Assembly (NCBI GenBank): GCA_965223345.1
Contig: CBDCWG010000007.1
Span: forward strand, 93,426 to 157,425
Reading direction: 5' to 3'
DNA from: Nitrospinales bacterium
GTDB lineage: Bacteria; Nitrospinota; Nitrospinia; Nitrospinales; VA-1
Length of the DNA: 64,000 nucleotides
The notes beneath the pieces were generated by a model. It was not told the origin of the DNA, made no database searches, and saw nothing but the letters and a program-made list of their open reading frames with translations. The stretch's first letter is position 1. Every line of letters begins with the position of its first letter. Position numbers and translations under genes: made by a program. This document shows positions 16,501 through 17,921 of this stretch, one piece after another.

Positions 16501-17921
16501 TTATTTCTCTTTCAGTTTCTTCTCTTTCTCCATGACTTCGTCCAGTGTTCCCACCATGTAGAAGGACTGCTCGGAAACTTCGTCGAGGTTGCCGGCGAGG
16601 ATCTCCTTGAAGCCTTCGATGGTGTCGGACACCTTGACGTATTTTCCGGGCGAGCCGGTGAACACTTCGGCGACGAAGAAGGGCTGCGACAGGAACTTCT
16701 GGATCTTCCGGGCACGCGCCACCACCAGTTTGTCTTCTTCGGAAAGCTCGTCCATGCCCAGGATCGCGATGATGTCCTGCAGGTCCTTATAGCGCTGCAG
16801 CACTTTCTGAACGCCGCGGGCGGTGTTGTAATGGTCTTCGCCGAGCACTTCCGGATCGAGGATGCGCGAGGTGGAGTCGAGCGGGTCCACGGCGGGATAA
16901 ATCCCCAGCTCGGAGATGCGGCGGTTGAGAACGGTGGTGGCGTCGAGATGCGAGAACGTGGTCGCCGGCGCCGGGTCGGTCAAATCGTCCGCGGGCACGT
17001 AAATGGCCTGCACGGAGGTGATCGATCCCTTCTTGGTGGAGGTGATGCGCTCCTGCAGGTTGCCCATCTCGGTGGCCAGCGTCGGCTGGTAACCCACGGC
17101 GGAAGGAATGCGGCCGAGAAGCGCCGACACTTCGGAACCCGCCTGCGAGAACCGGAAGATGTTGTCGATGAACAGCAGCACGTCCTTGCCGCCCACGTCG
17201 CGGAAGTATTCGGCGACGGTGAGGCCGGTGAGCCCCACGCGCATGCGCGCGCCGGGAGGTTCGGTCATCTGGCCGTAGATCAGCGCGGTCTTGTCGATGA
17301 CCTTGGACTCCACCATTTCGTGATACAGGTCGTTGCCTTCGCGGGTGCGTTCGCCCACGCCGGAGAATACGGAAAAGCCGCCGTGCTCGGCGCCGATGTT
17401 GCGGATCAGCTCCATGATGAGAACGGTCTTGCCCACGCCGGCGCCGCCGAACAGGCCGGTCTTGCCGCCCTTGAGGTACGGCTCCAGAAGATCGATGACC
17501 TTGATGCCGGTCTCCAGCATTTCCATGCTGGTGTCCTGGTCTTCAAACGGAGGCGCGTCGCGGTGGATGCTCCAGTTGTCCTTGGACTGCACGGGCGGCT
17601 TCTGATCGACGGGCTGACCCACGACGTTGAGGATGCGTCCCAGGACTTCCTCGCCCACGGGAACGGTGATCGGCGCGCCGGTGTCCACGGCGTCCGTGCC
17701 GCGCACGAGGCCGTCGGTCGGGTGCATGGCCACGGTGCGAACGGAATCGTTGCCCAGGTGCTGCGCCACTTCACAGATGATGTCGTCGCCTTTGGGTCGC
17801 CGGGATTCTTGATGCGGATGGCGTTGTACAGATTGGGCAGTTCGCCCCCTTCGTAATTGACGTCCCACAACCGGACCCATGACCTGGATGATCTTGCCCA
17901 CTCTATTGCCGTTGTCGCTCA
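16501..17921 (-). CDS. atpD: F1 ATP synthase beta subunit, with two compensating frameshifts near the 5' end
   Basis: Walker A GGAGVGKT and beta-subunit hallmarks throughout. Residues about 20-43 are read in the wrong frame. The correct [27 protein letters not shown] segment is in the +1 frame (track ORF 17406..17870). Confidence 0.85.

Follow-up and report, generated by a model that had tools for sequence, protein, structure and literature searches.

A 23-codon out-of-frame stretch between two opposite single-base indels in the ATP synthase beta-subunit gene of a Nitrospinales contig, a probable consensus error

Pairs of frameshift mutations that compensate each other are known from evolutionary studies (PMC8935012; PMC8127213). 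Real pairs were found in weakly conserved genes and weakly conserved regions, and singletons specific to one lineage were regarded as confounded with errors of sequencing, assembly or alignment (PMC8935012). The locus presented here belongs to a window of 64,000 nucleotides (the whole stretch of DNA that was analysed) from a contig of a Nitrospinales bacterium. Relative to L081, the closest relative found, its atpD gene carries two non-3n indels that sum to a restored frame, which is how a pair of compensating frameshift mutations (pCFM) is formally defined.

The atpD gene, coding for the beta subunit of the F1 ATP synthase, was located at 16501..17922 on the minus strand from the ORF list, Pfam matches, protein identity and synteny. 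Its product is 100% identical to the deposited protein P0001 (473 aa). Among the matches listed by the protein search, the best ones were Nitrospinaceae/Nitrospinota MAG proteins, the identity to Nitrospinaceae AtpD proteins being 83-88%. The first-pass annotation had described an intact ORF of 489 aa with about 23 codons read out of frame. Both the intact ORF and the out-of-frame codons were borne out, and the length is corrected here: 489 aa is the maximal ORF from the first ATG at 17970, and the accepted start, which gives 473 aa, is the ATG at 17922. This start stands behind GGAAGGAG and is the start position of P0001, of the L081 orthologue and of most of the listed relatives' N-termini. 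All three domains of the expected architecture are present, i.e. the N-terminal beta-barrel, the nucleotide-binding domain, with its Walker A motif GGAGVGKT, and the C-terminal helical domain (Pfam PF02874, ATP-synt_ab_N; PF00006, ATP-synt_ab; PF22919, ATP-synt_VA_C).

L081 (ENA ERZ25072999) is a syntenic 3.25-Mb contig, reached via an exact AtpE match, whose DNA is 86-92% identical to the window between 13.8 and 29.6 kb. As indicated by the ORF list and by tblastn of the L081 proteins, the atpI-B-E-F-H-A-G-D-C operon is complete (15958..22874, minus strand), and its members other than atpD are intact, full-length, in a single frame and colinear with L081. The gene order atpA-atpG-atpD-atpC is syntenic with L081, with atpD lying between atpG and atpC.

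A stretch of 16 codons upstream of the accepted atpD start is in frame both in the window and in L081, with one 3-nt indel and two synonymous changes. There, the atpG stop followed by ATG AAA AAG ATT TTT GAC is identical over 38 nt (window 17923-17977, minus strand, vs. L081 12087-12154). The other Nitrospinaceae AtpD proteins begin at the downstream ATG, without these 16 codons, which could be translated as an N-terminal extension or could act as a conserved element in coupling or regulation.

As written on the minus strand, the affected part of atpD runs in codons from ATG GGT CCG GTT GTG GGA CGT, through CGA AGG GGG CGA, to CCC AAA GGC GAC GAC ATC ATC TGT. The DNA alignment of atpD with L081 (90.5% nucleotide identity) contains exactly two gaps, a 1-nt insertion and a 1-nt deletion. 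The insertion (site 1, 17864..17866, minus strand) gives GGG, vs. GG in relatives, where GTG GAC codes for V-D; the window reads CCGGTTGTGGGACGTCA and L081 CCGGTCGT-GGACGTCA. At the deletion (site 2, 17789..17796, minus strand; CCCAAAGG), one base is missing between AA and GGC (CCAAA^GGC), the alignment being GACCCAAA-GGCGACGA in the window vs. GACCAGAACGGCGAAGA in L081. The consensus as written is GGG at 17864-17866 and CCAAAGGC at 17789-17796. This alignment bears out the extra G in GTGGGAC and the missing base at CCAAAGG, both of which had been proposed from the letters of the window. The base lost at site 2 is the third one of an AAN codon (AAC GGC in L081), and the site lies within a loop whose length and sequence differ between relatives.

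The two indels are 75 nt apart, +1 then -1, with a net change of zero. Between them, 69 nt corresponding to codons 20-42 are out of frame (17797..17865, minus strand), as delimited by the translations, the codon-likelihood outlier and the residue match to L081. In the protein as written, residues 20-42 of 473, i.e. 23 residues, are replaced by an Arg-rich peptide, and either frame gives P-K next (CCC AAA vs. CCA AAG). The canonical frame appears in the ORF list as a mechanical ORF (17406..17870, minus strand), whose first 27 codons are the true beta-barrel peptide and whose remainder is out-of-frame read-through of atpD. The location of the canonical peptide in this +1-frame ORF, also claimed by the first-pass annotation, was corroborated by translation, Pfam and relatives.

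The frame-shift pattern is far beyond chance by four independent measures: Pfam, invariant positions, solved structures and a codon scan. Concerning the first, the sequence as written scores 38.3 bits against ATP-synt_ab_N over profile positions 31-69, vs. 66.3 bits over positions 1-69 after repair (one G removed and one base added). As for the second, D20, L28, P29, L31, Y32, N33, A34 and I37 are invariant in 23/23 aligned relatives (Nitrospinaceae AtpD); the +1 frame restores all eight, vs. none in the sequence as written. An alignment with AtpD orthologues had been suggested earlier as a check, and it found the as-written frame conserved in none of them. The repaired N-terminus also aligns residue for residue with the solved F1 beta subunits 9nvl_D and 2qe7_D, an alignment in which the Arg-rich peptide has no match. 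Finally, about 50 genes were scanned for codon usage by log-likelihood in 15,852 windows of 69 nt, and the atpD stretch came out as the top out-of-frame segment, with d = 42.3, followed by 22.1 (the 5' end of an ORF) and 13.1, in a ranking that leaves out the gene at 7456-8772 (SorA). An AlphaFold2 prediction of the protein as written had a mean pLDDT of 35.7, obtained from a 24-sequence alignment that was too shallow for an informative model.

The AtpD of L081 is canonical. Against it, the window protein is 90.7% identical as written and has 448/473 identical residues after repair; over the 23-residue stretch, 19/23 residues are identical in the canonical frame vs. 1/23 as written. The nucleotide differences from L081 within the stretch fall 3/4/9 at codon positions 1/2/3 of the canonical frame, in which four of the nine changed codons are synonymous, and the gene-wide distribution is 15/10/105. 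Such a distribution points to strong purifying selection on the remainder of atpD. The substitution pattern in the stretch follows the old frame, so that the signature of purifying selection is still carried there, and the canonical frame is undamaged, which leaves a frameshift that is either unreal or extremely recent, without evolutionary age. The stretch is thus neither a weakly conserved region nor one under selection in the new frame, since eight invariant columns are replaced and the substitutions track the old frame. A pseudogene reading of atpD was considered and rejected, given the 15/10/105 differences by codon position outside the 69 nt.

The AtpD as written is a singleton: it forms a protein cluster with one member, from one 377-kb contig, and L081 and all other relatives examined carry the canonical frame. 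A second sequence of the same species was not found by exact-protein look-ups or in metagenome and genome contigs, among the matches listed. A 26-mer inside the shifted segment had 0 matches in metagenome contigs; a 20-mer just downstream had at least 120, none of those listed exceeding 77.5% nucleotide identity to the window atpD. Among the matches listed, the scan of genome contigs returned only distant relatives and one 87% Nitrospinaceae contig. Exact look-ups of AtpD, AtpG, AtpA, AtpC, AtpB and the ferredoxin returned no contig of the same species, AtpE, on L081, being the sole match among the seven exact-protein look-ups. It was also observed that the AtpD of L081 is absent from the listed protein-search matches (best non-self match 88%), despite its 90.7% identity to the as-written query. 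The negative outcome of this search is therefore no proof against closer relatives.

Frame integrity was analysed across the remainder of the window, where similar indels in other genes, another check raised in the first-pass annotation, were not found. The 16 other genes common to the window and L081 are all colinear and run in one frame over their full length. Their coding indels vs. L081 are all multiples of three (6 nt in metG; 3 nt each in PSP1 and atpI), and indels of one or two bases occur between genes only. In a scan of about 46 further ORFs, the family matches run from end to end; five ORFs are without a family match in either library and thus fall outside this end-to-end assessment. 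The profile positions covered are 2-941/943 for UvrA, 2-839/840 for MutS, 1-385/388 for SucC, 1-288/291 for SucD, 1-433/433 for the UbiD family, 1-421/422 for UmuC, 1-135/135 for NDK and 2-178/179 for FolE. SorA (7456-8772) matches its profile over 1-396/396 in the correct frame. No further out-of-frame stretch was detected by the codon-likelihood scan of about 50 genes. As a whole, the general indel error rate of the assembly looks low.

Neighbouring same-strand ORFs were also considered as possible split genes, at 42.2-43.1, 53.8-56.1, 0-0.9 and 2.3-3.4 kb, and none pointed to a split. Six of the suspicious ORFs each hold a complete domain of their own (NDK, PTPS, GTP cyclohydrolase I, DCC1-like and two Slp copies). 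Another, cut by the start of the window, matches radical-SAM in part, and three others have no Pfam match. The two complete Slp-family outer-membrane lipoprotein genes stand in tandem (2282-2779 and 2789-3397, minus strand) with a single in-frame stop between them, and are a tandem duplication, not a split gene.

Several other features of the window were observed. Between uvrA and atpC, a 397-aa ORF (14596-15789, minus strand) without a Pfam match lies in a low-GC islet (about 45% vs. about 60% around it), and L081 has different genes at the same slot, namely a 45-aa ORF, a BrnA-antitoxin-like ORF and a 239-aa ORF; the uvrA-atpC gap is a variable insertion point adjoining the atp operon. The sucCD genes adjoin a three-subunit 2-oxoacid:ferredoxin oxidoreductase (alpha, beta and gamma), all intact (46351-48455 and 50512-53479, plus strand). 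Reverse-TCA carbon fixation is expected in Nitrospinota, and this neighbourhood is consistent with it. An ORF of 1114 aa (32553-35897, plus strand) has a partial DUF4175 match only and no NCBIfam match; a peptidase-MA/TPR protein and then an AAA/MoxR-like ATPase follow downstream, and the region is a large uncharacterised envelope-type cluster.

Taken together, both indels are probably consensus errors in a metagenome-derived contig, all artefactual variants being counted here. The artefact is favoured by the place of the replaced stretch, in the conserved beta-barrel "crown" domain of a gene central to energy conservation, and by the loss of eight invariant residues, the lack of evolution in the new frame and the singleton status on one contig. 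Speaking against it are the clean remainder of the window and an exact cancellation 75 nt apart, which is improbable unless errors cluster: by a rough estimate, two indels placed independently, as the sole frame-breaking ones in about 55 kb of coding sequence, would have a chance of about 1e-3 of lying no more than 75 nt apart and differing in sign. These clean surroundings argue both against a platform that miscounts homopolymers and against two independent random errors, and 64 kb without another frame error suggests that the two probably stem from one local event.

Under the consensus-error reading, the two indels would thus be less a pair of independent miscalls than the product of a single local event, for which candidates are a poorly supported consensus stretch, reads from mixed strains in this highly conserved gene, or a glitch in polishing or merging. 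Where a gene is as conserved as atpD, reads from co-occurring relatives might upset the consensus of a metagenome. The real gene would most likely read ...GTT GTG GAC GTC AAT TAC ... GAC CCA AAN GGC GAC GAC... and code for a normal beta subunit, with K or N at AAN. The ORF would have survived through the zero net length change and the rarity of off-frame stops in a GC3-rich genome.

If the indels are artefactual, P0001 carries 23 wrong residues and the case is relevant to data quality only. The restored frame would make ORF-based and pseudogene checks blind to the errors, and errors compensated in this way can contaminate protein databases and alignments.

A genuine and very recent compensating pair (+1 G, -1 base), turning 23 beta-barrel residues into an Arg-rich peptide, is the alternative that survives best, though it is unlikely. 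It could have arisen in one complex mutational event or stepwise, the second indel being a second-site suppressor of the first, and it would account for an exact compensation within 75 nt in 64 kb that are otherwise free of errors. Replication slippage also happens at short runs, such as those at both sites, and the second indel falls in the variable loop, a tolerant place to regain the frame. Such pairs are, moreover, documented in evolution (PMC8935012; PMC8127213). However, the real pairs on record lie preferentially in weakly conserved genes or regions (PMC8935012), and here an essential enzyme would lose eight invariant positions from a structural domain that is conserved. The sequence also displays neither adaptation in the new frame nor decay in the old one, and the variant is a singleton that the nearest relative, L081, does not share. 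That recent compensating frameshifts rewrote 23 crown residues (eight of them invariant, roughly two strands) in a natural Nitrospinaceae population whose F1Fo ATP synthase still works is a doubtful proposition, with less to recommend it than the mutation itself. If true, it would reveal an unexpected structural tolerance of the beta-barrel domain, and a rare compensated frameshift, freshly caught, in an essential bacterial gene; such a tolerated frameshift in a conserved domain would be modestly interesting and would open no new question.

The first-pass annotation had preferred homopolymer sequencing errors. Error as the cause is retained here as the preferred reading; the homopolymer mechanism is not, and two independent homopolymer-length miscalls, from a platform with a systematic homopolymer problem, appear very improbable. 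Both indels can indeed be described as short runs that changed in length (GG to GGG at site 1; AAAA to AAA, or GGG to GG, at site 2), but these runs have only 2-3 nt, and about half of random insertions would probably look alike. With a platform that miscounts homopolymers, long runs should be the first to suffer, and the short length of those affected therefore speaks against it. The window holds 369 homopolymers of at least 5 nt, 25 of them of at least 7 nt and several inside intact genes, and none breaks a frame; the adjacent G5 run, inside the shifted segment, is itself correct. A general homopolymer-error problem of the assembly is not supported, and the estimate of about 1e-3 applies also to the independent placement of two such miscalls. 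The longest homopolymer of the window, a C11 run at 21582-21592, lies between atpE and atpF, where L081 has about 137 nt extra; the tract could vary in length, or the spot could be prone to error.

Programmed recoding, with a +1 ribosomal shift at site 1 and a -1 shift at site 2 that would make the canonical protein from the sequence as written, was rejected as having practically no probability. Site 2 does form a canonical -1 slippery heptamer of the X_XXY_YYZ type, C_CCA_AAG (17790-17796, minus strand), in the canonical frame, at which a -1 slip would give exactly ...DPKGDDII..., but the heptamer is judged coincidental, being simply the codons for D-P-K. At site 1 (GUG GGA C) there is neither P-site re-pairing nor a stop codon, nor any known +1 motif. 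Downstream of site 2, 90 nt are no more stably folded than shuffled sequences (z = +1.16). Both the indels and the heptamer are missing from L081, which reads CAG AAC GGC.

Set against known systems, the locus resembles each of them in part. With dnaX-type -1 frameshifting at X_XXY_YYZ it has in common the heptamer that lies in the incoming frame at site 2; it differs from the dnaX-type -1 and prfB-type +1 signals in having no +1 signal, no stimulatory structure and no conservation in L081, and we know of no precedent for two sequential programmed shifts in one gene. From local indel errors in MAGs it departs in having no second example in 64 kb, an exact cancellation and long homopolymers that are unaffected, which is not the diffuse pattern of a noisy long-read assembly. 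The documented pCFMs are alike in their two non-3n indels with a net change of zero and in the return of the frame after a short shifted stretch; they occur, however, in weakly conserved genes or regions, and the reliable ones are common to several species, whereas the atpD case concerns a conserved domain and a single contig and displays no evolution in the new frame. Local consensus errors of MAGs share with it the singleton contig, the single-base indels, the undamaged signal of the original frame and a conserved gene common to co-occurring relatives.
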